A stretch of DNA of 64,000 bases from Raillietiella orientalis (lineage: Eukaryota). How positions within the stretch are numbered: position 1 is the first letter of the stretch; the number at the start of each line of letters is the position of its first letter. The stretch is from contig JAYWIR010000001.1 in NCBI GenBank assembly GCA_036172245.1, positions 6,324,001-6,388,000 of the forward strand. The letters are read 5' to 3'. Made by a program: the position numbers and the translations under genes. The notes below the pieces were generated by a model. It saw only the letters and a program-made list of their open reading frames with translations, searched no databases and had not been told where the DNA came from. Below are positions 19,801-62,820 of this stretch, one piece after another.

Positions 19801-22074
19801 CTCGAGGAAAAGGTGCCAAGGACCGTGTTTATGGAGACAGGGAATAATTTCTTGTTTGCTGAGCTTCAGGAACGACAGCGCGCAACCACATCAACAAAAT
19901 GAGACATCTTCAAACGGATCTTTTACACGTCCGATACGGGAAGGATTATTTGGCGATTAAGTCTCTGATTTAATCTTGTCCTTTCCTGCAAAGTTGTGAG
20001 GAGGAAACTGAAAACGATGATCCATGAATATTCACTAAGTAAAAGACTTGGCTGATGCTATCCGCATCACATCAGCTATGCTTCAGTTGAGAATAGTGAA
20101 ATGGGCTCTGCTCAAAACGCTGTCTGAGGAATTAAGGATTCCCGCAGAACTCTCACTATAAGACCCCTCCGTAATTCTAAAGTCTCAGCAAAAGAATGGC
20201 TTGGTTGATCGACAGCTTGTTATCACACAATTTGTAACAGTTTTTCATACAAGGGTAGTTATCAGTACAGAAAGTATACATTCATGGCGTACATTTCTTT
20301 TTGTTGTTAGCTCTCTCTTGAACCATTTTTTTTAGTGGATGCAGCCCAATATGCAAAGATTCAAATCACTGCTTTTTGGTCGTTGGTCTGGTCGTCTTTC
20401 CATTCTGCAAGACCCATGCACTTTATTCATTTCCAAGTATATGATCGGTTTGCTTGCACTTTGGGGTGGGTGTGATGCTTTGCTTTGAACTCGGGAGTAG
20501 CTTTCAGAAAATTCGAAGATTCCATACAGAATCACCCAACCTCGTATGAACCTAAAAATACGTTTGGAGGAATTCTGAAATCTTTCTTTGCACAATATTT
20601 GATCGTCTCTTAAAGCGATCATTCTACGAATGAATGACATCTAGAATTTCTTTACTTCAGATTCTTTATGACTTCTGAGAACATTCCCTTTCTCTTCTTT
20701 GATGCTGTAAAAGATCGTTTTATTCTCTGTTTCACAACAGGTTTTTTTTTCGAAAATCTGTCTTCGTTGGATTGCTTCTTCAACTCCTTCCATATAATGG
20801 AAGAGACATTCATGAAGGAAAAAAGACTAATAAAATAAAGATGCCAAATGGGCTTCGATTAGCAAAGATGGTATCCGGAACACAGAAGAATGGATGCATA
20901 GCTGTAAAGTGTTTCTTGGAATTCTCATTTTTCTGATCATACTCTTCCATGTTTGCTGTGTTCACTCCGTCCATTCAAAGTGAGTACATCAATCTGACTG
21001 CCAAGGAGATTTTTGGTATTTGTGATGATTTTTAACAGAAAACGCTTTTGTCACTTCTGGAATTTTTCGCCTTTGCTATTCGATTTTCTGTTGCTTTTAT
21101 GATCTGAGAATTGCACACCCGGATCTGGAGTTGGATTTCATCATACTCTCAATGTAGGGTAAAATTCGCGGATAAAGGAAACAAAAAATCCAAAACTCAA
21201 CTCAAGCTTAAGTTCATAGAGGTTTTAGAAAAACGTGCAAAGATTATATCTAACTTTCCACATACTTTGAAAAGCGATTGCAAAAATCCAAATCCGTTTC
21301 CTCTTATCAATGAATTATTTGAGATTGGCAACAGAATTCTTAAAACTCAGCATCACTGATTGGAACGAGTTGTCCATTCACTTGGAAATCAGCAAAATAT
21401 ATATTTGTAATACATCATTCTACTTTCGTATTGTGGCATCCAGGTCTCAAGTTTTGTTTTAGCCACTTCAGTAAAAGAGCTTTTCTTTTTGAAAAATTTT
21501 TTCATCCCGTTCAAATACTTTCCCGAAAACAATTCACTATGTCGTGACTTTGAGCAAAAAATTTCATTTGAATGCGAATCAATAACCCAGAAAATATGAT
21601 AACGAATATCAAAGAAGAAATTGAAGGAAACGTTCGATAAAGCCAAAGCATCTGACATTTTTCGAATGGTTATCCACATAATGATGGATCCTAAAGCCTT
21701 ATCTCTTGAGTGTTTGGATCAAACAATCAATCAATCAAAGATCAATCGAATTCCAAAGTGGAAATCTGTAGGGGAAACCCAATTACGAAGGTGAGATGAA
21801 TAGGCTCAAATCTCATACTTTCATGAAACTTATTGACAAGCACTTGGGCAGATCAAGTTGTGCATTTGGCAATGGTGGTGCATATCTTCACGTTTCGCAA
21901 AATCCTCCAGCATTGCAGGAGGGTATTGATGGAAAAAAAAAAGGCATAGGGAACTGCATGCACATGTCAATGCAATGTGATCCAACAACGGTGCCCTTAC
22001 TGAACAACACCTCAGACGGATTATTGAGCAGCAGGAACAAAGAGAACCTAAAGTTTGCAACAGCCACTCATCTA

Positions 22075-22656
22075 GTCTCCCCGAACTGCAAAAGGTGCGG
22101 GGAAGTGGAAACGCTCCCCCATCTGCTCCTGGACTGCGGTGTTCTCCAAGGACTCTGGCCGAGGCTGACCTCGGTTCTCCTGCACCAGGGGGACACCGCA
22201 AGAGACTTGATGCGCCGCTTCTTCACGCCAGGAGACCTGTCCTTAGGTGCTGTTATTGCAACGGTCTGCTGCAGCCGCGCCATCGACAAGGCCCACCGAA
22301 AGCTGGAGAAGCTGGCCATTCTTCCTCAGCCCACTGGAATAGCTGGCGTGAACATGGCGTCGGCTGCCGAGTGGACCCATCTTCCGGAAGACGTGGGGAG
22401 CGAAATCTCCGGCATCCACCGCCGGTTCTGAAGGAAAGGAACGGCCGAAACCAAAGACCCCCGTCCCCTCCCCTCCCCATATCTTTATTTATGTTTTTTT
22501 ATATGTGTATTTGTGGTCCCCTCTCTCGCGTTCCGGACTTTCGGTTTACGGACCTGCGTGTCGGGGATCCCCCCCTTCGTTTCTTCTGTGTCCTTTGTCC
22601 GGGAACTCTGTCCCTGGATAGTTTAGAAATAAACGCCCCGGCGCATTCGGGTGAGA
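22075..22656 (+). mobile_element. 5'-truncated non-LTR retrotransposon (L1/Tx1-like ORF2 C-terminus), copy A
   Basis: GC-rich insert in AT-rich DNA. Encodes the zf-RVT motif PNCKRCGEVETLPHLLLDC...W and stops at 22431. The 3' end is AATAAACGCCCCGGCGCATTCGGGTGAGA. A perfect 16-bp TSD, AACAGCCACTCATCTA, lies at 22059-22074 and 22657-22672. Confidence 0.88.
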
Positions 22657-26280: not shown

Positions 26281-27350
26281 TCATATTTGGTTTCTTCTGC
26301 GTAAGGGAACATGTAAAGCTAATGCAAAAGTTATTAACAGAACAGTCATCAATATTAATGCTATAGTGTAGCCTATTGTAATTTGCTCAAATAACTGTAA
26401 CCATGCATACCAAAGGCCAAGCAACAAAAGAAGGAATAATGGTAGCAATAGGCCACCCAAATCAAATTCAAGCTCATGAACAACATGAGGTCTTAAAAGT
26501 GAATTGCTGTTGGAAGAATTAGTAGGTAATGTTACTATTTGACAATGCACTATACATCCTTCACATAGGCCATGTTGTTTTAAACTGCGATTCTCATCTC
26601 TTAATAACTGTCCTTGGAAAATTAGGCGAACACATCTATTCATGGCTAAGTCTGATGAAAAGTGTCTCCTAGAAAATAATGTACATTATTCAAGCATTAT
26701 TGTTTACAAATTCAACACATAACTTAATGTAATTATGAATATCAGCTAATATGAGAAGTTACAAGATGCAATAAGTAAATCTTACTCCAGGCAATCAGTG
26801 AATCATATGTTTACCTCTTGAAATCCTTTAACGATTCTTCAAGAAATCCATCAACCACTTTAAGAGAATCATTAAGGAATTTAATTCGAACTTTTATTCT
26901 CTGTAACTTATTGGAATTACTACCAGTCTGTTCCACTGGAAAATGAGAATTCATTGATTGTTCATTTTGAAATTCCTGAGTCCTACTATTTGTAATGCTA
27001 ATGGTATTATTCTGTAGGATTTGCTCTTCATTTGAAGGAGTAAATACTTGTTGACATGATGATGAAGAGTTTTCTTGAACTGGCAATTGTGAATTACACA
27101 CTTGCAAATGTGCATCTTCACTCCTAACATTTTCTATGCCATTGTCTGAATGTCTTTGATCTCGGTACACATCTTCATGACTCTCAGAAACTAAATTCCT
27201 ATTCTGAGAACCAGTTTCACTTCTTTCTCTTTCTACTTCACGAAAATTGGTCACTCTTGTTGAAGCCCATGCTGTGAATGCGATAATAGATAGAAAAATA
27301 GCAATTCCTGTATAAATGACCTCAACTCCTATCCCTTCAATTGCAAACAT
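26281..27350 (-). CDS. TMUB: Transmembrane and ubiquitin-like domain-containing protein (TMUB1/2 family), 2 exons, 307 aa
   Basis: Exons 27350-26815 and 26668-26281. N-terminus IEGIGVEV plus a TM helix ending AWAST; UBL domain IKVRIKFLND...VRLIFQGQLLRD...IVHCQI; two C-terminal TM helices. Confidence 0.9.
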
Positions 27351-29131: not shown

Positions 29132-29188
29132 AACGAATTAAATAAGGAATAACCATACTATGCATGGTTGCTCCTTATTTAATTCGTT
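29132..29188. repeat. 57-nt near-perfect hairpin
   Basis: AACGAATTAAATAAGGA / TCCTTATTTAATTCGTT form a perfect 17-bp stem, followed by one mismatch, one G-T pair, AACCAT/ATGGTT and a 7-nt loop. Confidence 0.85.
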
Positions 29189-29668
29189 TTGATTTCACTT
29201 ATGACACTGATGAGCCAAGTAGTAATCAGAACAGAATAGCTCTCTTCTCCACAGAAAGCATACTAGGTATGGAACTGATGTATAAACATTCTATACAGAA
29301 AGAAACTGTATATCTACACATATTCGGAGCTTTGAAAACATTCGTTCAAGGTCCGAGAATTTCATGAGGTTAATCTTCATGGTGTGGAAAAAATCTGCAT
29401 TCACAATTTCATTTAACAAGATAAATAAAATCAGTCGCCCATCATTTAGCAAACCTCAGTTATGGGAACCATCAGAATGATCCGGAAACATTCAAGGTTG
29501 TTAAAATGCAGATGTACATTAGGAATGAGGAATTTCCAATTAAGATCAAGGTATTTTGATTTTCTCAGATTCAATTCGCATGGAAAGACGTTCTCCATAG
29601 TAAGCGAAATGGGCATTATTGAGAAAGAAAAAAAAAACTTCAATTTATGGGACTCCTCGATCGAGTCA

Positions 29669-29775
29669 ACGACACGAAGATTTTCATGGATGACTTGAAG
29701 AAAGTATATGTGTCTTCGAGCAAAGAAACCGCTGAAAATTACTTGTTCGAGCTGGAAGAAAAATGGGGACAAAAG
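29669..29775 (+). pseudogene. IS256-family transposase fragment, bacterial (Wolbachia-like)
   Basis: Frame from 29671 reads DTKIFMDDLKKVYVSSSKETAENYLFELEEKWGQK, matching the IS256 motif F..DLK.IY.A.S.E.A...L..LEEKW..KYP. Confidence 0.75.
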
Positions 29776-29776
29776 T

Positions 29777-29903
29777 TTTGATAGAAACATAAATTCAGAT
29801 TATCATGCAGTATCAAAACCCATCTAGAGAATTCCAGATGTACTGAAAGCAGCTCCTATCACCAATGATCAAGTCATTTTTGCAGCAAATGGTAGAATTG
29901 CAG
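29777..29903 (+). pseudogene. Fragment resembling the lipoprotein-releasing ABC permease LolC/E periplasmic region (Wolbachia-like), with an internal stop
   Basis: FDRNINSDYHAVSKPI*RIPDVLKAAPITNDQVIFAANGRIAG. Assignment is from recalled alphaproteobacterial LolC/E sequence. Confidence 0.5.
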
Positions 29904-30150
29904 GCACCACAAAAATTGAACTCAGTTATTGCAGAAATGAGAAAAGCCAGCAGCCTCGCCAAATAGCGAGGAAAAATGGAATGCAACAAACAAATATACA
30001 AAAGATATCACAGAACTTGCTATGCAAGGAAAGCTTGATCCCGTGGTTGGTCGTGATGAAGAGATAAGAAGAACTATGCAGGTACCACTGAGACGAGCAA
30101 AGAATAATCCAACGCTGATAGGTGAACCCGGTGTTGGAAAAACTGCAATC
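29904..30150 (+). pseudogene. clpB: Bacterial ClpB fragment (N-domain linker to AAA1 Walker A), frameshifted
   Basis: [16 protein letters not shown], a frameshift, then [65 protein letters not shown]. The ClpB/C signature [33 protein letters not shown] is present with decay substitutions. Confidence 0.92.
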
Positions 30151-31414
30151 CCTAAAATTTGTGGGATTCCTCGACTGAGTCATTCCATTAAGAATGACAC
30201 TGAGTTTTCAGGTTGAAATTCTATGAAAATGGCAGCTTTTTCCTGTGGACACAACCTTCTTGATGAGCAGGGAGTAATTTGTATCCTGAAATTTCCCTGA
30301 AAACTTCTGCAGCGTGGTTTCTTAGAGACATCCCTTTTGAAGAATAGAAAGCAAATTTGCAAAGCGCATCTCAGGATTAATTTTTTTTTCTTGTTCATCA
30401 GTCTGCAGATTCGTCTGAAGCCCAGGTTGGACGCCACGGTTTATGGGGAAAGAAAAAATTCGTTCACGTCCTTTTCCCTCCATCGCTTGCGTGTGTCACC
30501 CGTGTGATGTAACCGATCTGTGGATCTCCGCGGACCTCGGCTTACACCACGAGGGCTGCTCAAGAGGGTAATTGATTTACTGTTGGGCAGGGCCGTTTGC
30601 TCCCCCCTCCACCAAAACTTCAGCTCGAGTCCATGCACGGGGCATGCCCTCAATTACCGAGACAAGATGATCGTTTCGTCACTTTCGAGTGTACCCAACC
30701 CGATATGCTCGCCGCCTACCCCGTAAGCCCTATGCAGACCCGTTTTTGCGAGGAGCACTTTACCCAACGGAACTGCTGAAGGAGAGGAAATGAGTGTTCA
30801 TGAATTACGACCGACCTCATGGAAGCTCCCAATGCATCCGCTGCAACGTGTAGAGCTTAAATATACAGCAACCTTCCCCCCCCTCCCCCCCACGCCAGCG
30901 ACAGCACAACGGATTTTCTTTTTCTCTCCCCCCCCCTTCCGCTGAAGAGACCCACTTTGTACGGAAAATGTGTGGTCCCCAGAACATATGTATACGGAAA
31001 ATGCTCCAGTGCACAACACATTCGATAATAGGGCGATTCCCCCCCCCCCACTGGCTGCGGTAAATCCGAGTTTAAAAAAGTTGTCTTCAAAGCCCGACCG
31101 GGATCTCAACTTGGCCAGGAATTGCTGGGGTCCACACAGCATGTGTTTTTGCGTTTGGCTTCCCCACGTCCAGGCACGTAACGGTTGAACGTAGAGTTTC
31201 AAACATGGTAGGGTCGGAGGAGGAGGAGGAATTTTTTTTTTTTCCCCTCTCTTTCTCTCTTACATCCCCCCCTCCCCCTCCCTTCCCTCCATTTTTTTGA
31301 AAGTTTTTTTCGTTTTGCGTTTTGTCATCATGCCGAGCGTAGAATACGTTTTATTAACTGGCGGGAGACAAATGCCCCCACCAATGCAAGCATGTTGTGT
31401 CTGATTTAAGGAAC

Positions 31415-34400
31415 ATGGGCGAAGTTGAAATCCTATCAGAGATTGTTCCCGCCCTGTATTTGGGATGTGAAGAAGATGCACTGTCCGAGAGTCAAATCAG
31501 AGCAATTAAGAATTCACGTGCACAGTTCAACAAGTTTCAGACCCTCTTGAAACTCACGTATTTACAAAAGGATGATAAACTCAAAGTGGAAACTTGTTCA
31601 GCGAAAAGTTCTGTAGAAGTAAGAGTACTTTGTGATTCCTAATAATAACATTCTTATGTATAATGTCTCTAGGAAGGAGAAAGTCTCAGTGATAGTGGGA
31701 TACTTTGCCATCTCCTGAATGCTTCTGGTACGTTTTCTTTTAATCCTCAATCACCATGTGCTTGGTTCTCTTGCAATTTAAAGCGAAACCAAGTATCATA
31801 CAAAGAATGGGCATTCGATTTTAGATTCAGAAAGCCTCGTAGTTTGTGTTTTTGTGGTGCTTCTGTTCTTGTATGTTTCGCACTCCCGTTGTAATCGTAT
31901 CGTGTTCGAAAAATGATGAAAAATTAGAAAAGTCAGTTGAAAATAGAAAGCAGTGCTTCAACAAACTGTTTCTGTTTCATATCAGGACAATCCAAAAATT
32001 CAGCACCTTCACAGCTGTTGAGTTCTCATACAGGAAGTGGGAGAACACTCTCAACCAATATGGTAAATAATCTGAAATTTGATTCTTTGTATTTTGTATT
32101 GCTAGCCTGCATTGATTAAAATTAAATCAAAAGAACAAAAATCTGCAGTTTCTTTGTCCAATGTTAAACTTCTAAACCCCACTGTCACTCTTCCTACTTC
32201 TGGTGAAGTATCTGTTCTGAAACCCATTTCATCTTCAGCACAGAAAGGTAGCTGAATAATTTGTTGCAATATGTAATGTACTAAAGGAATATTGGCAGTG
32301 TACGTGCATTCACCTCATCAAGTGTACATTAATGTAGCTAATGCTCCACCGCTGTCATCAAACCTGGCAGTTTTATTAAAGGAATGCCCAATCCTGCTTA
32401 CCACACCCAGAGCACAGAAGATGGCTTCTGGAGATTCCACTTCTCGTCGAACTGAGCTTGGTGAATACAAGCCTTGTGAACTCACTTTCACATAATTTTG
32501 CTGCATAGATGCCTTCATTAAGAGTAAATTGGCATACAAGCCAGATCAGCTAGTGGAGTGGTTACTGAAATCAGGCCTCATCCGAAGCAAACATCGCTGT
32601 CCAGATCATGGCCGTTACATGCAGTTGGGATGGCAGCAACAGTCCATGGAGGACAATGGCAACTATGTTTGGATGGCCAAGTGCTGCTCCCAGCAACTAT
32701 CAGTATTTCAAGGCTCCCTGTTTGAAGCTGTCAAGACATCACCCAAAAATGTCATCAAAATGATATATCATTGGGCTTGTCAGACACCTGCTACAAATGT
32801 TTCCTCGTGGGTGGGCATTCCCTTGCCAGAGATTGCGCATTTTTATATTGTGATGCGATCCGTGTGCTCCCGTTCTCTTCAAGAATTGCTTCCCAAGCTA
32901 GGTGGTCCTGGGTGTTGTGTAGAGCTAGGATTCTTTACTTTGGGATGCACAAGTGCTGAGAAAGGTCGCCAGCGCAAAGTGGATATATTGGGCTTGTATG
33001 ATCGTACTTCTGGTGTGTACCGATTCTGTGCAGTTTCCCCAATTGCCTATGAGAGCTTGCAGAGCATTGCACCATTGCTTCTGCATTTGCCCAGGCTACT
33101 CAAACCTGGATCCATTATTTCTATTGATCCATCTTTGCACCGAGATGCATTGCAGAGCTATGTTTCAAAGTTAGCCCTCACAGTGAGAGAGTCTCCAGCT
33201 CATATCCTCCCAGCCAATCGAGCCAATGCAACAATTATGACTTATTTGACAAAAGTTATACCACGTATCTTTCAATACAATTTGGGTACACTCACCATCG
33301 ATGATATCCAATCTTTTCTTGATGAGCTGTCCTGGAGAGAGCAGTGGGGATTTTTGCCTGCTGATTCATACTTCAATATAGTGGATCAAGTAGCTAACTA
33401 CATGCGCACCAATCAAGGTGATTTTGTCATGTTTTTCTGGTAAAGAAAGTGCATATTCAGATTTGGGTCCAACAGTAGTTACAGTAGAGCAGAAGCCAAA
33501 TGCAGAACTGACAATCAGTGCTGTCATAAAAGAAAAAGGTGATGTTAAACTATCCAACCACCAAAACTCATCCCGACATGTCCAAATGAAGGTAAATGTA
33601 GAAGACTTTCTAACTCATTGCACTTGTGTTAGACTTTGGTTCCAGTTCATCCAGGAACAAAGAAACGAGTGGCTAGTGGTAGCAGTCCCATGAATCCATC
33701 CAAGCGACCTTTATTGAATCCATCCATCAGTTTGAGTTCTTGTGCTAACCTGGCACCTTCTGTTGAGACTGTGGCACTGGAATCTTATTATTATGGCACA
33801 ATGCCGGGTAGGGAAAATCAGGCAGTGGAATGCTTTGGCCCCTTTAAGGTAAGAGTGAAATCACAGAAGCTTCCTCAGAATTTGCCTCCTGTAGTGCCAC
33901 CTCTGCTCCAAACCTTTCACCAATAACATCCAGTTTATGTATCATATCCTACGTCATCTGGAAAGTTCTCACTCTTGCACTACTCAGTTGGGTCAGCTTA
34001 CCCAGTGTCGCTATTGTTTAGATACTTTTGCTACACCATATGCTATGCAGTGCCACATTGAGGAGCGGCATGAAGGCCGTGGTTTCATTTGCCGTATCTG
34101 TGAAGTGACCTTCAAAGAGAAGCATTTACTGTTTACACACATGAATGCTGTCCACGTGGCACTTGAGTTACCTTATGTGTGCCACCTGTGCTCATACCGT
34201 TCTTCACAACATTGTCAGGTGATAGATCACTTCCAGGAAATGCATAGTGGCTCGGATGTACTTCAGTGTCATCTCTGTTTGAAATTAATCAAAGCTCACA
34301 CGCCATATCATTTCATAAGCCATTTACAGGTAGGTCTTAAAAGCTGAGGTTTTCCCTTATGATGTGTTTTTCAGCGTCATAGTCTCAGGAAAAAAGAGAG

Positions 34401-35223
34401 TAATCGGTATAGGTGCCGGCGCTGTTGTTTGAGATTCCTGAGTGAATGTGACATGAAAGATCATCAAAAGCACCATGCAAGTATGAAGTTTGCCCCTGGT
34501 GTGATTCCTTGCAACGAGCATGACCCCATATTGATGCCCCATCCTCTTGCTGAAAGTGCTGCTCAGGTTCCAGCACCACTACCACCACAGCAGCCTCCAG
34601 TGGTTCATTCTTTGTATTATAAGGTGTGTTCTCTCGAGCATGTGCACCTGCTTCGTCAGGAGACGTTTACATGTTGTGAATGTGGTCAGGTGACAGATAG
34701 TAAAAATCACTTTAACGCTTTATGGAGTTGTGCCCATTGCTGTTATCAGACTAGCTGTCACCTTTCTGTGACCAGGCATGTGACTCTTTGGCACAGCAGT
34801 AAGAAACTGCAATCCCGACAGTTTAATAATCTGTTCCCCTCCCCTATGTATTGTGTCTGTGGTTTCCACAGCTCCTCCGGTGATGCTTTGAGCAAACATT
34901 TAGTGTATTGTGGTAGAAAGACTTGTTATTCCAGCGAGTTGCATGTGCATGAAGCAACAAAACTTCATTCGGCCACGTTTCCACCTTTGGTGACTTTAGA
35001 TGAAACAGACGACCCCAGCAGCGAGTGGCTGAAGGCATTTTATGCTCCCAAGGAGCCATTGGGCAAGCAAAAATCCAAATCTGCTTCATCACTGAGCAAC
35101 GAGGAGTCGCCAGATGTGTTGAACCAGCTAGGATTGGTACGCAAGCCTCACGAGGAGGAGAGCACGATCGGTCGCCTGCTGGATAAAATACTGATGCAAG
35201 TCGAGTGCCAGTTGGAGAAATAA
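31415..35223 (+). CDS. POGZ/ZNF280-family (Row-like) C2H2 zinc-finger chromatin protein with an internal Merlin/IS1595-like transposase-derived domain (10 exons, 1063 aa)
   Basis: Exons 31415-31618, 31673-31727, 31986-32062, 32106-32247, 32287-32460, 32509-33417, 33461-33591, 33633-33848, 33895-34329 and 34375-35223, all phase-consistent. LYLGCEEDALSESQ resembles POGZ LFMECEEEELEPWQ; ESYYYG resembles DDFYYG; CHLCSKPFTNNIQFMYHILRH resembles [21 protein letters not shown]; also CRYCLDTFATPYAMQCHIEERH and ELPYVCHLCSYRSS. Confidence 0.88.
32509..33417 (+). other. Exon 6 of the POGZ-like gene: domesticated Merlin/ISXO2 (IS1595-family) transposase-like domain
   Basis: EWLLKSGLI..CPDH...W..KCC..LSVFQGSLFE, an HTH-like segment, KLGGPGCCVELG (Merlin IGGPG..VEIDES), ILGLYDR, LKPGSIISID (I.PGS.I.SD) and IQSFLDELSWRE (L..YLDEF.WR). 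Confidence 0.75.
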
Positions 35224-35248: not shown

Positions 35249-38200
35249 TTATTTGTGTTTGCTTGAAGGACCGGGGCTCACTGCTCGCACTACTTCTTTA
35301 GCTACACGTAGGCCCTCTTGCAAAAGGATTTCTTCGTTACACTTGTTCCAGTTCGGTGGAGAGTTGGGGCTTACTGGTGAATCTGAGTTGTCCAAGCTGA
35401 AGTCTTGCGCGCGGAGAAGAGCTCGTTGTTCCAAAAATAACTGTGCTTGTCGATTCTGAACGTTATGAAGCTGCTGCTGTAAACTGTTAAGCGCAATGAG
35501 ATCGTGGCACCCCCTATAATCGTCCGCTTTGTCTCGCAACTCTGCCGCTCTCTCAGCATAACTGCGTAAGTCGAATGCAATTTGTTCTAGCCGTTGCTGT
35601 CTATCTCTTTTTCGAAAAGGAATTTTTGCATCTCGGTCACCTTCTTCAAAATCAAGACGTACTCGCTTTTCGTTTTCCATCGCTTCCTCAATGCAATTGA
35701 GCAAACGGCCCGTCTGCCCCCGAGAGTGGCCTTTGGAGTACTGGTAACCGGATTCCCTCACGACCTGCCGTGCCAGCGGAAACAGTTCGTCTCTCCTGGT
35801 GAGCAGAGCGGGCACCAACCGGCAGATCTGTGCAGCAGCTTCGTTCACGGACACCTAGATCTGCTGGTCAAGACCAGTGGTCTGGGGTTGGGATCGGGTC
35901 ACCTCATGCAGAGTCAACGGCTTTTCAGCGCGACGCTTACAATCAAATCGTCCGTAAATTGCGGCGTACTTGCGGATTTCATCCATGCGGTGAGGGTCAC
36001 TGTCAGGCATTTGAATGATATGCTGCAACCCGCCGTACAGAGGAAGCTGTGCTTGCGGTCCGCATCCTTACCTCTAGGTCTTTGGAAATCCTCCGCTTGT
36101 TGGGTGCCTTGGGTTCGAACTGAGGAAGCGTTTTGACCAGATGCTGTGCAGCATCAGCCAGCCGTTGTATCTGTGGCTCCAGTAGGGCTGGTGTTAGTTG
36201 AAGAGGAGAACCAGGTCTGCTGTAGTAAAGCTCATGCGACTGTAAGTCCGGCATAGGAGCACGAAGTGATTTTTAGCTTACCTGCTGCCGAACCGGGGAA
36301 AGGGCACCGTCGTCTTTTTCGCGGCTGATCGTGGGACTCGGAGTATGAACTGGCGATAGCTGTGCAGACGGAATAGGACTGACACAAGAAGCGGAAGTAG
36401 AAAAATGCAACAAGCGGTTTCCTCCAAACAAAGAAATGCTGTTCCCAAGAAGGTTGGGGATCAACGGTGTTTGGAACGGCGCTGAAATACACAAACAGCA
36501 GTGTGAATGAAATTACGCAAATTTACTTTCAGGTACGGCGTCCCTGAACACACACCTCCGCGAAAGGGGACAGCAGCTTGATTGCTCAGCGCCTAAGATG
36601 TCGAGAGCCTCGGTTAAGATCGCCAGAGGGATTTTTTTACGGCACTTTTACAAATGCACTACTGCAGAGACAGCGCATCGCAATCTGCTCCCTTCAGCAG
36701 GGGCGCTTTGCATCCCTTGGAGCCACGCGAGAGCGTCTTTTCCAGTTGCACATTCATCGGAGATGAATAATGATGATAACCGGCAAACCCTGGTGCGCGC
36801 CGCGTGGCTCGCGCATCGAATCGCGCAAAATTCTTCACCTGCAGAAGAGTGCGTGTGGGAAGGAGGGGTGGGGGTGGGGGGGGTTAAAGGGTGGTTGGTG
36901 GTGCCGTTTGGATTCAATGAAAAATGTTGCTGCGCGATGGACAGAAAATCATCGGAAAAAAAAAAAAAGTAACTGAAGAGTATCGCCCTCTACCGCCCGA
37001 TCTACAGCGAACCGAAAGGATGCACAAGGTGATCCCATTCGCGGCTCCTCTTCCAGTATGTTCGGGAGCATGCGGATGGTTTCCGGCAACCATCGACATT
37101 CGCGTGAATGAGAAGGCGCATCCGAGAGAGCGGCAGGAAAATGGCAATGTGCAAATCGGAATGGCGCGCCCGCTGTGAGACGGGAGATCCCCGAGTCTCA
37201 CGTTCTATCCTCCCCCCCCCCCCCGGCCCATTCCACTCCCGCCTCAGTCTGCTCACGTCTCGTCGCCGATTCCCGGCCTGCAATTCTAAAAAGTTCCGTT
37301 TTGATGTGTACTTTTGGGCCCGATCCCGATGGGGAAAGCAAATAATATACTTTCTTTTTCCTTTTTTTTTTTTTTTTTTTCCAAAAAAAAAAAAATTCCC
37401 GAAACGGACGAAAAAACCGTTTGGCAACGCGTTCGTCTGCATCGCTCGGCGGAGGAGCCGCCGCCATTCCGCCTCGGCGCTTCCTGTCTGCCGGTGCGAT
37501 TGACAGAGCGTTCCGCGGCGCTTCTCGTTCGCAATCTTGTTTGTTTGCGTTTGTGATGAAAGAAAGAATTCCGATTCCTCGTGCAATTTGTTTTGCTTCC
37601 CTTCTTTCCTCCTCCCCTTCCTCAAATACCGTTCCGGGAAGAGCGCGCTGCCTCGCGCTTTGTTTGCCACCCGACCTACTCCGAGGCAAGCGGTTCGGCT
37701 TGCAGCCTCCCCCTCTCTTTTTTTACCCCCCTCCGCCCCTCCTTGCATCGCAGTCGCATCGGCCCTCCTCTTCCAGGAGGAGGAAGACGACGAGCAAAGC
37801 GGTGGTTGCGTCCGGCACGCTTCGATCAACCCTTATCCATCCTGTTGTCACTTGATGGCGCCAGTTCAAATCCTGGTGCACACAGCTCCGATGCAGCGGG
37901 CAGCACGCAGCGCAAGACCCCTCCTCTTCCCCCCCTCCTGCTGTCTGAGGATCTTTGGCCTCCACGAGTAGAGGCAGCAGCGGCTTCTACCCGATCGATA
38001 TCTACCATGGATGTGTTTTTTTTTTTTTGGAAAAAAAATAAAAAAAAACATCCCCCCCCCCGTCACGATCTCCAAGTTTCGGGGCTCGCCTAACGAGTTG
38101 TTGAGCCTGAGTATGCGTGTGCATGTGTGTGCGTGGGGGGGGGGGGGGGGGCAGCGATGACTCACGCTCCATTCCCGACGTGACCCACGGCGAGGGAAGT

Positions 38201-41200
38201 TGTGCACGTGCGCAGGGAAGTCGCCGCCGTCCTTGCAATGGCTGCTGGCGTCTCCGGCAAGAAGCGGCTGCCGACGGTTTCGCCGTCGCGAAGAGCGCGC
38301 GCAGATTTGCGGGTCTTCGCGGACTGAGGCGAAGCGGTGGGACTCGGACGAAGGCAGCAGCGCCTTCCCCAAGGGAAGCTCACCGGGGACTTAGGATCGA
38401 CTGAACCATGCTCAAAGGCTGTTCGCATGGACCCCTTCTCCACATCAGACCTCCGGGATCTCACGAGTCGCCCGGAAACACGCACGGGAGCGGAGGAGGA
38501 AATCCTCCTCTGCGACGACCCAGTCAGACCTTTCTTCCTTCACCTCCTGATGATGTGTGGCAAGGCAGTGCCAGTGGCGCAGCTCCGCGCCGCACAACGG
38601 AAACCGTGCGTTTCTGCGGCGACGCGTGTTACCGGAGACATCTTGCCATCCCTTCCTCATCTCCCCGTCTTCTCCGTCTGAGCACGCGGGTCTTACGTAG
38701 TGCCACCGTTCGTTTCCCCTCGAGCCGGGTCGCTCGCTCGGGAGGCAGCGTCAACACGGCTGTCCAGCCACTGGAAGCCCTCCGACTGCAAGCTGCCGAG
38801 TCGCCGATGATGCGGAAAGTCCACCACGTGGCCGCAGCGAGGGCGAACCCTGCGCTTCCCCCCCCACCCCCCCGTCTCGCGGGCCGCTCACCTGCGAGAG
38901 GGCTCGCCCAGGAGCCGGCTTGGAGACTGACAGCGCGCCACCGGTCACTTCCCACTGTCCCGCGCCCCTTCTTCGCGTCTGGCACGATCGTTCACGTGCT
39001 TCTCGGTCCTTTCTCGGCCCCCGGGGGCGGGGAGGCCCAGGAGTCTCGGAGCTCTGTCCCCCCCAGGCGGCTGCGCGAGCGATTCCTTCTCGCCATGGCC
39101 CGTTCGATGTCTCCCTCCTTCCCTCCCTTTCCTCCCGTTTCCGGAATGTTCTCGGAGATCGGGACCTCGCTGCTGCGCCGCAAGACGGCGCTTCCGAACT
39201 TTCCGTCCGCAGAGGTCGAGGGGCAGTCCTTCCCCCTTCCTCACAATGAGCAGCACAAGGAGGTCCTTTAGGACAGCCCGGGGCATCCTGAAGAAGGCCG
39301 AAGGGGAAAAAAAAAAAACCTTGACGGGATGGCGAGGTGAACGAGCGCCATCGTACGGAGCAGGTGCCGTCACCGCGCGCTTGAATGGACAGGGTAGAGG
39401 TGGGGGGAGACCAAGATCAGTGCCCCGTGGAACGCAAGTGGAGCCGACAACCACTTCGACGAAGGTCCTCCAGGAAGAGGCGGATGCACCCCCGCCCCAG
39501 GAAAGCATCCTCCCTCAGTCGCAGCGCAGGCGTCGAACGGGTAGACGAGGACGGGACCCGGAAGAGCGGGAGGGGAGGCAGAACTGTGCCCCCCTGTCAC
39601 TGCCGCCCCCATCTCCGGAAGACACCGGAAAAGGAACCCGAAGAGCAGGGACCGCTGCCGACGCACGTCGCGCGGAGCGGCAGCCCAGGTGGACGCTGCG
39701 CAAGGGGGGAAGAGAACAACTGAACGCCTCTGCAGCGCAGTCAGGGGGTCGGCGAGAGTCGAGCATCGCTTCCTCTCCCGCCCTGGGGAGAGGGCCGGCG
39801 GGACGTGCGTCGGCGGCGTGGCGTGTGGGCTGCTGCCACTGTGGCGGATTCGACCTCCGTGGAAGGGCCACTGCTACGAAATCGAGAGGGCGCTGCGGGG
39901 AGGACAGGCACTCTGTTCCCCCTACCCACCCACCACCCTCTTTCCCCGCAGTGCTTGGCTCATTTCGGATCCTCCGAGGTTGCCGCAGGACGACGGCGGG
40001 CCGAATCGTTGGTTCTGCTCTCCACCTTCCTCCTCTCCGTCCTGCCTTCCCTCGTCCCTTCTGCATGTGCAGAAGGCAGAGAGAAGACGAGAGGATGAGG
40101 AGGGGATGGGGAGGCAAGCGGGGATGCGATTTGCGGTAGTGACCCGCAGGCCTCCGGTTGCAAGACCGACGCAAGACCGTGGGCACCTGAAGGCGCGCGC
40201 GCTTTCGGACGCCAAGACCACCCCGTGAACGAGGCGATAAAGGAGGCGAAGAGCGCCTCCTTTTTTCTTCCCCCCCCCCCCCCACGCGTGGTGCGGGTGA
40301 TGCGTGCAGTGCAGCAGGGCTTCTCTCTTTTTTTTTTTTGTTTTTGTTTTTCCCCCGGCGTGCCTTCTCCGCAGAGGCGCACAAAGCGCGGATTTCCATT
40401 CTTCGTCCGCAACACGTGCGCCTACGCGCAAACAAAGCACTTGACGAGCGGCAAAAAATAAACAATGGGAAGGGGGGGGAGGGGGGGTGGAAAAGGAAAA
40501 CAGAACCGCGTTGCGCGGCACGATTGTTCGCGCAACCTAGCAACGCGCGCTGTTCCGAGCGCAAACTTTTCCACGAACCAACTGGGCATATACATAACCG
40601 AAATAACTGAAAATGGACTTTTCGGGACTCCATCAGGCTGCAGGTTTCGGGGAATCCGCAGCACCCGCGGGAAATCTCTCCCGAATCCCCGAACCGCTCG
40701 AAATCTCTCGGAAACGAGCGGCGACCGAGACGACTCTTCCATGCAGAAAGAGGTGCTGCTCCCTCAGGAAAGAACGACACCAACCGCAGAGGTCCTCAGC
40801 ATGCTCGAAATGCTCTGCACTCAAAAAGGGAAGAAGAAAATCAGGGAAAGAAGGGAAAAAGCGAAAGTGAGAAGAAGTTTTATCGGAAAAGGCGACGTTT
40901 CCCGAAGTTTCCAAGCTCAACGACCACCCCGAAAACGGCTGACCCGCTTCCCGCCGCCACGCCGTGCGCAAAGCCTCGCAACCGAAAGCACAGCTCGGGG
41001 GGAGGGGGGACCCGGGTCGCCCGAGGAATCTGCGAGGGTTCGGGGAAAGGAACAGACAGTTGCACGTGCAGAAGGCAGGCAGGCAGGTAAGAAAGACGCA
41101 AGCAAAGTGCACCGTGACAAATCCGCACGTGCGGGTTCGTGTGGCGTTCACGGCCGATGCTTTTCGCAGCATCGGGAACTGCAGCGCCTTTTCACTCCAC

Positions 41201-44200
41201 GGTCGGACAAGCACAGCCCGGGGAAGGCAACCACCCAGCTCTCGGGCGCCACCAACCCTCTGCGGGGTGAGTCCGCCAGCAGCCGTGTCGAGCCGCGCGC
41301 CCCGAATCGCGCGCTTCACCCCTCTCCAGAGGATCTCGCCCTTCGGCAGGGGCGACTTGTAGAGGGTCGCTCGTCCTGCGACAGTGGAGCTTCCTTCGCG
41401 GCACTTTCGCTGCCAGCTCCCCTCCCTCCCCCTCTCCGGAGCCCACGCTAGGTCTCGGGAGTCGAGCTTGCTCTCTCCAGGTCCGCTCCGAAACTGCCTG
41501 CAAAGCGCGCTGCGTCAACATCTTGGGGAAGCCTTGGTGTTCCTGGAAGAAAGAGGGATTCCGGCCGTTCCGGTTTCCGCAACAGCGAAGGGAAAGCAGG
41601 AAGCCTCGGGAAGCAGCCCGGCCGTTTCTGCGAGCGAACGCTCAGGAACGGGAACCGGGAACGCTCGCGTTGCGTAGCCGTCGCGTGACCCGGAGGCGAA
41701 AGCGACACACAGGGCACGCTCCTCTTCCCTCCTCTTCCGAGAGCTGCCCTCCCCGAGGGAGGACACGAACAGCAGCCTTCCGGCTAGATGGGAGGTCACT
41801 GTGGAAATCTCCGGAAGGAGAAGAGGACGACTGGGAGAGTGGACGAAGGGACAGCTTACAAACGCTGCGACCCCAACTTCCCCATCCCGAGGACTTTTGC
41901 GCTGCGGCGAACTGCTAGAAATTCAGGAGGAAGACCTGCAGTGGCCCCCAGTTCTCTCGGACAGCAGCACCCTCCCCTTAAAGTGGCCGCAGTCGGCGAT
42001 GCTGCTGCTGCACTGGGGTCCCCCGTGCAACGCCCGCCAGCATCGCTGGCCACGGGTGTGTTTGGGAATCCGAACCGCGGCAGGTGCGGGGAACGTGAAT
42101 CCCTCCCGCACTTGCAGGTGGACTGTGTTTCCCTCCGGCCCCTTTGGGGACGCTTTGCCGCGACTCTAGGAACCCCTCGGCGACAACTCCAGGGACGCTT
42201 TACGACCCCTCCTCGCACGCGACGCGCTTCGGCCAGCAGCCTCGCTAGCAGCTCTCTGAGCCACGCTGGAGGAGGACACAGCGACAGGGGTGCCACATCC
42301 ACTCTGCCGTCCTCTTCACGAGGATGGCAACAGAATGGCCCCACCTGGAAAACATCATGCAGCAAGAGCTTGCCGGCATCCTGAAGAGGATGCAGAGGAC
42401 CGCCCCCAGCAGGACGTGATCCTTTCTTCCCCCTCCCCCCCTCAGATCTATTTGTTTTCATTTTTGCTTGCCCCTTCCCATCTGCTGCTGAGGCGACCTC
42501 AGCGGTCTACGTCCCGGCCACTCGGCAGTTTCCTTTGGAAATGAACGTGATTTTGCAGAGATTGTGGTTGTTTATTTTATATGAAATAAACGCCCTGGCG
42601 CCTCCGGGTGACCACCCCCTCTTCTTCCTCGAGAGAGACGCGTTTGCCGGTCGGTCGGAAAACCGCAAGATCAAAGGCGAGAAGACACAGAGCGGGAGGG
42701 CCGTTCCTTTATCAAGTATCGCTGCAAGAACCGCTCCGGATGCACTGGATGAGGAAGGGAGGGCCCGAAAGCGCTACGCCTGGGCCCTTTCGGGCGCGGA
42801 AACGCTTGGCTCCTGGGTACAGGGGAAACAGCGCCGCCGAGAGGGCGCGGTTCGTTTTCCCGCGGGGAAACGGCGCACCCGTGCTCCTTCGCACGTACCT
42901 TCGGCACGTCCGCTTTCCTACCGCGGTGTTCTCCGGGAGGGAACGGAGAAGAAGCAGGGCAGGAGGAGCCAATACAGCTCGCGTAGGTCGGAGAGGAAGA
43001 GCCAGCAAGCCGCCGGAACAAAAGAAGTCACCTGGATTCTGCAGCCACTCCTGCAGCGCCTTCTGTAGCCGTCGCACGTGGAGCGGTTTCGAAGCCATCC
43101 CGACCAGCGACATGATCTCCAGGAATTCCTCCTCCCCCGCCTCACACAGCTGCTGCACGTCGTCGCCTCCTGGACAGAGAAACGCCGGGCTGAGTTCAAG
43201 AGCGGAGCGCGGCTCCTGCGAACACCCCACCTCCTCCTCCTCCTCGGTGTCCTCCCCCCTTGCGCCCAGCTGCGGCTGATGCTCGCCCGCGCGGAAGGAG
43301 GGGGGAAGGCAGAGAGAGGACGGAAGCGAGGCGAAGAGCCGTGCGCGCGCCCCGATGTGTCCCACGGAAGAGCCCGGCGGAAAACGGGATGCCAATCGCG
43401 ACGGGACCACCGCCTCCGGGAGTGATAGGGGGGTGGGCGCCACGCGCTGGGATGGTTTCGAGGACGAGGGGGTCATCGGTGCGAGTGACGCACGCGGGAG
43501 GAGGAGGGAAGAGTCCTCCTCTTCCTGGCGGATGGGAAAGGAAACGGCCTCCGCGCGAACCTGGCAGAAGGTGGGTGGGGTGGTTGGGTGCGAAAGATCA
43601 GAAGGGATCGTTGCGAAATCCGCTGCGATCCCCGCGGGAGAGGGGGAGAAGAGAGAGAGCGGGAAGGGCGCGCCGGCCTGTATATGCGCGGAGTCGGCAT
43701 GAGGGAGGGGAGGGAAGACGGAAGTCCCGTAGGCGCAGCACCCCCCACCCCGCAGAGGTGTCCGCACGCGGACGGACACGTGGCGGAGGTGCGCTCCGGC
43801 CGTGAGGGCTGAGGGGGCGGCTCGGTTGCCTCCATAGTGCCCCCCCCCCCCCCCGGCTGCGGGTGGGCGGCGGCACGTTCGCGGAGCGTCTGAGCCGCCG
43901 CTGGAAACCGAAGCTGCAGACGCAAGACCCGCAGGCGGCGGCGGCGGCGGCGGTTTCCTTGGAAACGTTCCGGCTCGACGGCGCGGTCGCAGGTGGTTTC
44001 TTCTCCTCAAGCCACGCCCCTCGCTCCTGCGTCGCCGAGCAGAAATCGCGAGCACCCCCGTACCGGGGAAACCGGGAAAGCGATCCTCGGAGGAAGGGTG
44101 CATGCAGCACGCATTAGCTTCCTTCGAAAAACATCAAAGAGAAGAAAGGAAGGCGGAAAGGAGGACCAAGAAAAGTGCAGGGGAAGGGAAGTTTTGCTTC

Positions 44201-47200
44201 TTTTTTTTTTTTTTAAAAAAAAAATAGAGACGAATAGATGAAGATATAAATAGAACAAGAAGATAGAAAGACAAACGAAAGGCAAGGGAAAACCACGAAT
44301 GAAAAAGAGAAAATGAAGATAATAAAAGAACAAATAGGGGAAAAGCAGAAAAGTTTGGAATGCATAAAAAAGTGTGAATAAAAAGGGGGGAAAAAACGGA
44401 GAATATCGGGCGGAGGTAAAGAAAAGTCGGAAAGTAAAGAGAGGGGGAAACAAAAAATAAAAGGAGCAAACAAAAGAACGAGAAAAAAAACGGGAAAGGA
44501 GAATGAAACGCAAAAAGAAAACGAAAACAAAAAAAAAAAAAAAAGGCTAGAAAGACGAGGGGAGGGGAGGGGGAGCAGCGTCGCGACGTTCCCTTGGCAG
44601 AAGGGGGAGGGAGCTCCGAGGTGGTCTCTGTCGCGCGCGCCTCTGGCGACGAAATTAGGCGAACCCGTTGCGGAACCATCCCCGCGCGGGACTCGCCGCC
44701 TCCCTTCTATGCCCCGGTTGCAGCCGGAAAAGGGCAGGATGGGGCTCTTGCGAGCCTGGCTCAGTGTGGTCGCGTCCTACTCGTGTGGGACACGCGAGCG
44801 CCAGGTGGAGGTGGAGCTGCGGCCTGCTCACTCGCTGCGTTCCCGAAGATGCGCTGGTGCCAGACGCTGCTGCTAGCGAATTGAGGTCTTGGGGACCCGG
44901 GAGAGGGTCACAATGATCCGCCCCCCCCCCCCTCCTCTCCCCTGTGCCCGGAGGCGCCACTGACGGCTTGGAGAGCATGAGGAGAGCGGAGGGGGAAGTA
45001 AGTAGGAACCTTTTGCGCCTCCGGGCGGGGGGGGGGGCAGCAAGTGGCGGGTGCTCTCATACAGACGGTCGCCACTCCACCCAAGAGATGCGCTCGTTCC
45101 CTCCGCTGCCCCCGGAGGCTGGACGGCTTACGAAGCGCGCCGACGAGACAGGGTGCACCACGGGCGTCCACACCGGTTGCTAAGCAGCGGCGCGGCCGTT
45201 GCTACAAGGCTGGCGGGGGGCTCTGGAAACTCTGTGGGTTGAATTCAGGAGCTGCTGCTGTTGCTGACACGACGACGGAGCACGGAAGAACAGCGGACGG
45301 GAGTTTCCTGGCAACAGTCAGCGCGCACGACAGCAGATGTCACCACCAGCAGCACCGCTTGAGGAAGAGGAAAAAGGAGAGGAAATTCAGGAAAGTGCGG
45401 ATGGATGGAGCACCTCAGCGTCGAATCATTTTGCACGCGCGCTCAGAACGAACCGCAAGAAGATGGGCGGGCGGAAGGGAAAAAAAAATCGAACGCAAAA
45501 AAGCGCACGAGGCAGCAGCGCCGTCGGCGGCAGGAGAGGGAGTTACTCGAGCAGATCGGCCCTGGGTCGCTCCCCACGGGGGATGGCCCGGGCACTGTCA
45601 GCAGGCGTCTGTGGACACGCATCGGCGCAGAGGACCCAACCTGCGCTCGTACCTACGGAAGGGCCCTTTTCGGCTACCCCCAGCTTCCCGGTTCGTCCTC
45701 CTCGGGGGGACGCCCCGCTGACCCCGTGCTCCCGGAATGCTGCACAATACTCTGTGCACAGACGCGCGCTCATGTGCTCACGCGAAGAGGTGCACGGAAC
45801 ACGCCCCCAACGCGCAAAACGAAACACGCTCATGTGCGCACGGATGCCCAGGCACACAAATGTAAACACAAACACGCATGACACCTGTGTTTACAACGGC
45901 GCACTCCCGAACGTGCACGAGACGTACCGGCGGGAACTTCCCGCGCAAAAACAGCTCTGTGACCGTGACCGCCGGAAGGATTTCATAGAGTGCGGAAAGG
46001 CACGGCCGAGTTCCTTCCCCCCTCTCCTCTCCCCCCCCCCCAACCCAAGATGGCGGACTCAACTTGCCTGCGGTCGCGAAAAGTGCGCATGCGCGCGAAT
46101 TTTGAGGGATGCGGAAGGACACCGGGCAAGCGCAGGATGGAGGGGACGGAGACAATTCCCGGGAGGAGTGGGAAGCGCTCGCGGCGTGACGGCAGAAGAA
46201 AAAAAACAAAAGATGGCGCCAGCGGCTCGATCAGCCAAATGAGTGAGGCGAAAGGAGCACAGAGATCATGAAGGCATCTCGTACTGCGCGCTTTCAGCAT
46301 CTTTGGTACTCGAACAAGCTTCTTCCAGCAGCACGGACTCCCTTAAGGAAGTGAGGGAATGGGGAGGAGGTGCGAATCCGAGGAGGGAGGTGGGGGGGGG
46401 GGAGCTGCAAAGAACACCTACACGGTAAGGGAACAACACCAGACGCACTCAGACAGTGCTGACCGAAAAAGCATTTCCTGGACCAACTCCATTCCGCCCA
46501 TCCCGATGGACCGCTGGCAACACGTCGGATACCTCGCAAGGAGGAAAACTTGCGAAGGAAGGCCGTTGCGTCTGGCTCCCGGTAACGGCTACGTCAGACG
46601 AGTCGTCTGCAGCCAGACCGCAAGGTCGTAGCCCCGCCAAGAAAGATTGGCCCAGCAACGACGACAGAGAGAGTTGCTGCAGCGCCGCCATGGCTCTTTC
46701 GGCAGAGCGCCGCGACACTCCTCCGACTTTTTTTTTCCTCCTTTTTTCCTCTTCGGTTGCAGCGTTGAACCCGACGCAGGATGCACCGCGCATCGCTCAT
46801 AAGTCCCGCCATTTAAGAATGGCCACTACACGTGGCAACCACGCTGCCGGTCCATTTTTACACGCTCCGCGAGACAAGCGCCGGCTGCAAGGGCGGACGA
46901 CGTGCAAATTCCCCGGGATCTGGCAGGACCGAGGGGCTCTCGGTGGACCACGGTCAATCCTCTGACCACAGTGCTAGATGATCACATCAAGCAGGAGGCC
47001 AGCCGTCCCAGACGCTTTGGAAATGACGTCGGCACTGTTTGCGCAACCGGAGCTCCCACCTACACGCCGCCAGGACCGTCCTCTGCAGGTGCCAACTGCC
47101 GCCAGAGACCCAGGGCTGTCACCGAGCGGTGCTGTGCGGCGCCAGGCTCCGGCATTGAACCGGGAACCCCAGCGACGAAGACAGACCGCCTCGCATGCGG

Positions 47201-48422
47201 GGAGCGTGGAAGACGACCTACGTCTCTACACCTGCACAACCGTCTCCCAAGACTGGAGAGCAGTCAAGCAGGCAATGGACATGCAAGGGCGGTCCGGAAT
47301 CAAGATCTTTCGAAGACTATTCCAAGGACACAAAGTCATCCCCCTGCACAACTCCACGTTGACGGAGCAAAGCTTGGACAGAGTACTCAGCAGGTTTCCT
47401 TCAGGGCCTTCTCGAGAGAAAGAGATGGGCACACGAGTACTGCGGCAGGGTGCCAGCTTGGACTATAAGCCACACCCTGCGAAAGATCGAAAGCGCAGAA
47501 CAGCAACGGGTAACAACGAGAATAGGAAACCAAGGACCAAAAGTGCTGTGCGGCGCTTTGTCCCTGGTTTCCCCGTGTAAAAGCCGTTGCGCCAGCTACC
47601 TGGACCTCAAACCTGCGCGCGCCAAAGACACGTGCAGCATAGCCTCGGGAGGCACATCTTGGCAAGGGGGATTCGCGTGTGGGTGCTGGAAGACGCAGCT
47701 CTTCCCTGGAAATGAGGTGTGCTTTTCGATACACGAACGTGTGCAGGTAGGCGCACCGCCCCTCTGCTGACGCGGGAAGGCGGCAGCAGGCCTGGCGCCC
47801 TCGAGGGAAGCCTCCCTCGTATCGAATTCGCAGGAATGGAAAGCGGCGGAGCTGGGCAGCGGGAGGGCGCGGAAGTCGACTGCGAGGCGAACAACGGGCG
47901 GGCAAACGCGAGCGGAAGGAGGAGGAGGAGGGAGAAGGGGGGGGGGACGGCGCTCGCTCGCACGGACACAACAAGGGGAGCCATTGCCGTCACCGTCGAG
48001 GGAGAGCGAGGCGCTCCGCCGCCGCCGAGCGCGGTCACGTGGTACTTCCGCCGCCCGAACCCTCTTTCTCCTCCTGGGGACGGAGCCCAGCGGGAGGAGG
48101 ATGGGATCGGCCCCACCCGGCCTGGCGCACGGCGGCGAGGGCGAGCCGCGGGCAGCGAGGAGAGCGTGCGTAGACGACGACGCCACAGGACGTGCGCGTC
48201 ACGCGCGCCCCCCGCCGCTTGGAGACGCTTCTGCGCGGTCGTCCTCTCCCCGTTCCGTTCCGCAAGGCGGAGCAGAGCGAACGAAACCACGTGGGACAGC
48301 GGCAACAGACCAAAGGCGTCCTTACCGTGGCTGATGAAAGTGTCGTAGTAGCTGAGGAGGTTCGCCCTTTGCAATATTCTGTACAGCTGCAGCTCGGATT
48401 CGTTGGTCGGCTGAGCGGTCAT
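35249..48422 (-). CDS. nab: NGFI-A binding protein (NAB) transcriptional co-regulator, 6 coding exons, at least 442 aa
   Basis: Exons 48422-48326, 43169-43032, 36481-36282, 36239-36072, 36022-35903 and 35854-35249. NCD1: [68 protein letters not shown]2: [35 protein letters not shown]...[21 protein letters not shown]. An acceptor at 48428-48429 implies a further upstream exon. Confidence 0.95.
41800..42612 (+). mobile_element. 5'-truncated non-LTR retrotransposon, copy B, antisense in NAB intron 2
   Basis: Decayed zf-[30 protein letters not shown] and C-terminus [28 protein letters not shown] (stop 42419), homologous to copy A EWTHLPEDVGSEISGIHRRF*. The 3' end is AATAAACGCCCTGGCGCCTCCGGGTG. 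The 5' boundary is approximate. Confidence 0.8.
44215..44575. repeat. Purine-rich (A/G) low-complexity tract
   Basis: About 360 bp dominated by A and G on the + strand, which is a long polypyrimidine tract on the NAB sense strand. Confidence 0.8.
46960..47580 (+). mobile_element. Degenerate non-LTR retrotransposon ORF2 C-terminal fragment, a different family from copies A-D
   Basis: LACGE, a frameshift, then [20 protein letters not shown] resembles a decayed zf-RVT (CxxCG..E...H....C......W). The AATAAA-hairpin end is absent. Confidence 0.4.
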
Positions 48423-62499: not shown

Positions 62500-62820
62500 G
62501 CTCGTCTTCCACACTCTCGAAACTATGCAGCAAGTGCTTGCCGGCATCCTCGGAAGGATGCTGAGGACCGCCCGCAGCAGGATGTGACTCCTTCCCGCGG
62601 CTCCCCTCCTTCCAAATCTATTTATTTATTTTCGTTTTTGTTTCTTTGTTTCCTTTTTGCCTGCCCCCCTCCCTTCTGCTGCCGTGGAGGACCTCACCGG
62701 TCTGCGGTAACCCGGCAGGCTCTCGGTAAGACGGACGTGGTTGGGGACCACCGGTCCAACCAGGATCTTCTGAGAGTATTTATTTTCATCTAAATGAACG
62801 CCCCGGTGCACCCAGGTGTG
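62500..62820 (+). mobile_element. 5'-truncated copy D of the AATAAA-hairpin non-LTR family
   Basis: LETMQQVLAGILGRMLRTARSRM* (stop 62587) is clearly similar to copy B at the nucleotide level. The 3'UTR is shared and ends AATGAACGCCCCGGTGCACCCAGGTG. Confidence 0.78.

Follow-up and report, generated by a model that had tools for sequence, protein, structure and literature searches.

The window, the stretch of 64,000 nucleotides that was analyzed here as a whole, contains at 29669-30155 on the plus strand a segment of 487 bases in which three fragments from within genes abut one another, and their DNA matches Wolbachia genomes. The segment is likely to be Wolbachia DNA that entered the nuclear genome of an arthropod-like animal in a single event and is now dead. 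On the best reading, it represents one old capture of several fragments in the repair of a double-strand break and corresponds to a "complex numt", with Wolbachia as the donor. The insert encodes nothing and no function is known for it. It would record the past presence of Wolbachia in the germ line of the host lineage, at a time sufficiently remote that about 6-7% neutral change per site could accumulate. The coordinates of the insert, of its components and of the surrounding features are collected in Table 1.

Table 1. Features of the insert and its surroundings in the window, with the matching segments of the wStri genome (G001).
Feature	Position	Strand	Description	Match in wStri (window segment, identity, place)
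zf-RVT match (zinc-binding region of reverse transcriptases)	21772-22431	+	weak, E 0.0052, below curated cut-off
Ubiquitin-family match	26281-26685	-	weak, E 1.6e-4, below cut-off
Inverted repeat	29132-29188		25 nt, 92% complementary, loop of 7 nt; precedes insert by about 500 bp
A10 run	about 29627-29637		just before left repeat copy
Left copy of 27-bp direct repeat	29642-29668		host DNA, resembles a target-site duplication
IS256-family transposase fragment	29669-29776	+	model positions about 225-262 of 338; no IS ends	29681-29776, 82%, near 1.466 Mb, and two weaker copies elsewhere
lolCE fragment	29777-29904	+	residues about 68-111 of 409; in-frame TAG at 29825-29827	29777-29900, 81%, 1.069 Mb
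clpB fragment	29905-30149	+	residues about 131-214; 5-nt deletion between 29954 and 29955	29905-30149, 84%, 0.432 Mb
Filler	30150-30155		6 nt; no match to clpB continuation in any donor row
Right copy of 27-bp direct repeat	30156-30182		host DNA
315-aa ORF	32496-33443		no Pfam match
C2H2/POGZ-like double zinc-finger ORFs	33895-35223	+	convergent with NAB 3' end
NAB (NGFI-A-binding) co-repressor gene	35249-48719	-	intron-split
NAB NCD2 end	35249-35854	-
NAB NCD1	47607-48719 and 42712-44133	-	split between two ORFs
Direct repeat	42357-42469 and 62525-62637		113 nt, 74% identical, 20 kb apart; in GC-rich part

The initial annotation of this DNA described three consecutive bacterial-type peptides on one strand within ~490 bp, interrupted by a stop and a frameshift and set among intron-containing animal genes. 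Each of these elements is present. The peptides, which are transposase-like, LolC/E-like and ClpB, respectively, occupy three different frames of the plus strand (29623-30216); the lolCE frame carries a TAG triplet where donors have GAG, and the clpB piece has lost five nucleotides. The neighboring genes are animal, for example a NAB gene that is split by introns and whose closest relatives are arthropod. A 27-bp direct repeat flanks the insert, and the ends that had been assigned to the latter coincide exactly with the inner edges of the two repeat copies. When compared with NCBIfam, the clpB peptide matched TIGR03346 (E 1.9e-29, model positions 144-210 of 853) and the IS256 peptide gave a weak match to NF033543 (E 0.0038); the profile search of the lolCE peptide produced no match. 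A Pfam search with the three peptides returned nothing above threshold, and an Rfam search of the whole window yielded 0 matches. As the profiles were weak or blank for the IS256 and lolCE peptides, comparison at the DNA level was needed, and this comparison settled the identity of all three pieces.

None of the pieces includes a full-length open reading frame. The ClpB portion spans about 83 of about 853 codons and is frameshifted, and that of LolCE spans about 43 of 409 codons and includes the stop. The IS256 piece retains about 100 nt from the interior of the transposase gene and nothing more, and therefore is not a mobile element in its own right. Over about 29676-29776 its nucleotide identity to the IS copies of Wolbachia, which are multi-copy, is 81-85%; the first ~10 nt are too diverged for firm alignment, and the piece and the host flank may overlap by 2 nt. 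Within the genus, identities are 78-88% for the lolCE piece, for which the matches cover positions 108-236 of the 487-nt query, and 76-87% for the clpB piece.

The origin of the fragments was assessed at both the protein and DNA levels. A scan with the back-translated ClpB peptide, conducted with one genome per prokaryote species, retrieved 596 relatives in 600 candidate stretches, of which 80 were kept. The peptide was 87% identical over 67 residues to the protein of wStri, the Wolbachia of Laodelphax striatellus, compared to 63-74% amino acid identity at the other 79 of the 80 loci kept. When positions 29500-30350 of the window were compared with the whole wStri genome, matches were located at three separate places with E values of 2e-19 to 6.5e-72, in keeping with the three distant loci that had been anticipated for a comparison of each segment. 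The donor open reading frames at these places are an IS256 transposase (NF033543, E 4e-61), lolCE (TIGR02212, E 1.8e-147) and ClpB (E 0). More broadly, 58 of 60 genomes of the Wolbachia genus matched the insert at 76-88% DNA identity, with best values of 85% for IS256, 88% for lolCE and 87% for clpB. Outside the genus but within the family, 20 of 38 genomes produced matches and, among the matches listed, these involved the clpB part only, at 70-78% identity with one value of 82%. Thus, the Wolbachia origin that had been proposed from the wording of the ClpB peptide is borne out, both by the gap between 87% identity to wStri and at most 74% elsewhere and by the matches in nearly all genomes of the genus. 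Judged from its sequence, the donor is Wolbachia or something indistinguishable from Wolbachia.

Three further observations concern the donor genomes. The 82% match to the clpB piece occurs in a genome outside the 60 of the genus (G087), and this genome may represent a Wolbachia-like lineage that is classified apart. The wStri copy of IS256 that best matches the insert is a truncated open reading frame of 196 aa that corresponds to model positions 169-336 of 338 (L083 1308-1898, in G001). Among the matches listed, copies resembling IS256 occupy at least eight places in some Wolbachia genomes and none in others.

The three pieces derive from donor sites that are not linked. The clpB and lolCE genes are separated by 17.9 kb to about 1.3 Mb in all 37 genomes in which both reside on one contig, and the IS256 copies are located elsewhere than clpB and lolCE. 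All three pieces are gene-internal and so cannot be neighbors in a working genome. The ends of the matches are common to every genome (8/13-106/108, 108/109-232/238 and 235/248-481 in query positions), and no match extends beyond a junction by more than 5 nt in the 58 matching genus genomes, among the matches listed. The initial annotation had interpreted the segment as a mosaic of unlinked pieces, to which contiguity of the pieces in a donor genome would have been the contrary observation; the distances between the genes and the abrupt match ends both agree with the mosaic. At the IS256/lolCE junction the pieces share a single T at 29776, an overlap of 1 nt in which the base is assignable to either piece, and the lolCE/clpB junction (29904|29905) is blunt. 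Thus, the insert has at least two fragments from non-adjacent donor positions and inner junctions that are either blunt or within 1-7 bp of microhomology, which are two of the features that define a complex NHEJ insertion. An origin of the joints in a spliced transcript was considered and rejected: the donor sequences at the ends of the pieces place no GT/AG at the joints.

The whole insert is bracketed exactly by the two copies of the 27-bp repeat, which are identical at 23 of 27 positions with all four differences being transitions. The probability of such a resemblance arising by chance was gauged with random pairs of 27-mers from the surrounding host DNA: in 0 of 2,000,000 pairs were 23 or more matches found, the maximum being 21. 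No third copy of the repeat occurs in the window at three or fewer mismatches. If the repeat is instead read as 31 nt (25/31 identical), the filler that precedes the right copy shrinks to 2 nt. One duplication surrounds all three pieces, which suggests one insertion event, and the divergence of the pieces from Wolbachia is similar (81-88%).

In the mechanism that we propose, three short fragments from unlinked sites in the Wolbachia chromosome, in the IS256 transposase, lolCE and clpB genes, would have been joined end to end by NHEJ, and a single double-strand break in a chromosome would have taken up the concatemer as filler. Blunt and 1-nt joints are NHEJ signatures of complex numts and nupts, and capture by NHEJ is proposed on this basis; repair of a break would fit both inner junctions of the insert. 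The 27-bp duplication of host DNA might have been generated by fill-in of a staggered break or by a short templated copy during repair, and the insert would have evolved neutrally since its capture. The duplication is the least standard feature of the locus, as a target duplication of this length is unusual for the capture of filler by NHEJ and requires either a stagger of exceptional length or some templated synthesis.

The same evidence bears on other routes to the present structure. The insert could be the remnant of a larger, rearranged Wolbachia insertion in which two later deletions removed the intervening DNA, such that the inner junctions are deletion scars. Insertions of large stretches of Wolbachia DNA that subsequently break up are described in PMC4046930, and lolCE and clpB occur in the order and orientation of the window in 9 of the 37 genomes, the nearest such pair being 100 kb apart. 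However, two deletions of at least 100 kb would need to have left clean junctions devoid of filler, and the required arrangement is absent in the other 28 genomes. Moreover, a single 27-bp duplication brackets the entire 487 bp, and no other Wolbachia-like DNA was found in positions 1-64000 at E 0.001 or better, and hence none of similar age in the 64-kb window. We regard this history as unlikely.

All three pieces are in sense orientation on the plus strand of the window. Copying from RNA would predict uniform sense orientation, and chance alone would give it in 1 case in 4. LINE enzymes make template-switch chimeras, and chimeric retrocopies mediated by LINEs consist of two or three unrelated pieces that are arranged in the same sense head to tail within a target-site duplication of variable length. 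Here, the reverse transcriptase of a host retroelement at a nicked target would have copied clpB RNA, switched to lolCE RNA and then to IS256 RNA. The insert resembles such retrocopies in the uniform sense of its pieces, in their joining without filler and in a flanking duplication that is long and of the variable type, and a weak zf-RVT match is present elsewhere in the window. It departs from them in possessing neither a poly(A) tract nor the 3' part of a retroelement, with just 6 nt between the clpB piece and the repeat, and in the edge of the duplication, which displays no recognizable A/T-rich nick site. The donor sequences at the ends of the pieces do not fit splice sites, and bacterial RNAs would have had to serve as templates; to our knowledge, the use of bacterial RNA as a template in the nucleus is undocumented. 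An RNA-based origin of this type is very unlikely, but if true it would constitute the first RNA-mediated route of gene transfer from endosymbiont to host.

A mosaic that had formed previously in the donor Wolbachia, as a cluster of junk or pseudogenes, and that was transferred as one 480-bp piece would also account for the joined fragments. Wolbachia of arthropods are rich in IS copies and pseudogenes, as described in PMC7046167, and the matched IS256 copy in wStri already is truncated. Against this, none of the 58 genomes supplies a match that extends appreciably across a junction, and no second lolCE or clpB fragment lies beside an IS copy, among the matches listed; accordingly, an assembled precursor in the bacterium seems highly improbable. 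Capture of separate fragments in one repair event remains the reading that we prefer.

The insert has degenerated. Substitutions were examined in an alignment that comprised the insert, 13 IS copies and 31 of the 58 matching genomes, namely wStri and the 30 genomes with the highest clpB scores. Thirty-two substitutions in 482 nt (6.6%) are private to the insert, that is, are seen in no Wolbachia row. These are distributed as 16/6/10 across the three codon positions, compared to 21/12/51 for substitutions private to the Wolbachia rows (chi-square p 0.013); the spread of the former does not depart significantly from uniformity (p 0.09), although the sample is small. The stop, the deletion and a set of changes that shows no excess at third codon positions point to neutral decay and not to contamination by a live bacterium, and together they amount to the pseudogenized state by which a nuclear transfer is recognized. 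The description of the insert as an old transfer in the initial annotation is upheld by the same features. That reads of a live Wolbachia were wrongly joined into a host contig, whether by faulty assembly, a risk that the initial annotation had raised, or contamination, is hardly credible, as a live bacterium would show intact frames and near-identity to some Wolbachia whereas the pieces, just 100-250 nt in length, reach best identities of only 85-88%, carry the stop, frameshift and non-coding pattern of substitution, and are set within base-precise joints and a duplicated host flank. In the assembly the insert is flanked by host sequence, with the intron-split NAB gene 5 kb away, and the duplicated flank argues for a true junction between host and insert. 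Fossils of this type are not to be confused with contamination or with live infection in genome screens.

The value of 6.6% is an upper bound on change after insertion, as the true donor lineage may be unsampled. The two copies of the 27-bp repeat differ at 4 of 27 positions (14.8%), which is close to twice 6.6%, as would be expected of a duplication that dates from the insertion itself, albeit from small numbers. The duplication thus offers an internal clock. With general arthropod rates, the absolute age is estimated at millions to tens of millions of years, a figure that depends on the neutral rate of the host.

The position of the insert among Wolbachia was examined in a maximum-likelihood tree that was based on 379 columns of clpB plus lolCE from the same 31 of 58 matching genomes. 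The insert resides on an end branch of 0.10 and is sister (91/81) to a clade of eight genomes, outside the cluster of ten genomes (100/98) that includes wStri. The latter is a supergroup B strain (PMC7046167). In AU tests, neither the joining of the insert to the wStri cluster (p 0.28) nor to a third clade (p 0.22) was rejected.

Both components of the preferred reading have precedents, as Wolbachia fossils and multi-fragment insertions each are well described; the locus is a tidy new example of a kind of thing already known. Nuclear Wolbachia transfers (NUWTs) are reported in Dictyocaulus viviparus (PMC4046930), in filarial nematodes (PMC12693587) and in the Wolbachia-free woodwasp Sirex noctilio (PMC8962096). 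As these reports depict them, NUWTs are short Wolbachia fragments that are co-assembled with host DNA, bear stops and frameshifts, are about 80-88% identical to living strains, form long terminal branches in trees and are taken as relics of infection, all of which applies to the insert. It differs from them as one isolated locus of 487 bp that is resolved to the base, with three unlinked donors, clean inner junctions and the 27-bp flanking duplication. Junction anatomy, in the sense of mosaic structure, microhomology or target site, does not feature in the main texts of two reports on NUWTs (PMC12693587, PMC3849323), whose supplements may hold such data.

Complex numts and nupts bring together fragments from donor positions that are not adjacent, the concatenation taking place before the fragments are captured at a double-strand break or in the course of it; their inner junctions are blunt or show microhomology of 1-7 bp, and these are viewed as signatures of NHEJ (PMC6215612). 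The insert shares with these the several non-adjacent donor fragments, the blunt or microhomologous joints and its evident inertness from the time of arrival. In contrast, the donor here is the chromosome of a bacterial endosymbiont, a single orientation is maintained throughout, and host DNA is duplicated over 27 bp, a duplication that is not among the hallmarks of NHEJ in the account of junctions given in PMC6215612. The locus provides a clean, base-resolved case of the entry of endosymbiont DNA into an animal chromosome, in which unlinked fragments appear to have been joined and captured at once and the target duplication still is readable. Unless the RNA-mediated alternative is true, it introduces no biology beyond that of known NUWTs and complex numts.

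The surroundings of the insert are those of an animal chromosome. The closest relatives of the NAB protein are from arthropods (orthopteran, decapod, termite and chelicerate), with identities of 57% or less; on account of these low values the host lineage seems poorly sampled. The C2H2/POGZ-like zinc-finger open reading frames and the NAB gene converge at the 3' end of the latter, and the insert precedes the first long open reading frame of the zinc-finger block by about 2.3 kb, on the same strand. No Pfam match was obtained for the 315-aa open reading frame at 32496-33443. A 91-aa open reading frame runs from the clpB piece into host sequence; when it was compared with annotated short proteins of 50-160 aa, the best match was 76% identical and none resembled the tail that is derived from the host.

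Other features of the window were recorded in passing. The weak zf-RVT match may mark the remnant of a retroelement in an AT-rich block, and a weak match to the ubiquitin family is located closer to the insert on the opposite strand. An inverted repeat and a run of ten A residues precede the left copy of the 27-bp repeat, and a more distant pair of direct repeats is present in the GC-rich part (Table 1). Base composition varies in extreme blocks: GC content is 54-71% in the first 8 kb and 52-70% from 37 to 64 kb, and is 29-45% at 8-30 kb, where one 1-kb bin reaches 50% and where the insert is located. The GC-rich blocks are crowded with overlapping long open reading frames on both strands.
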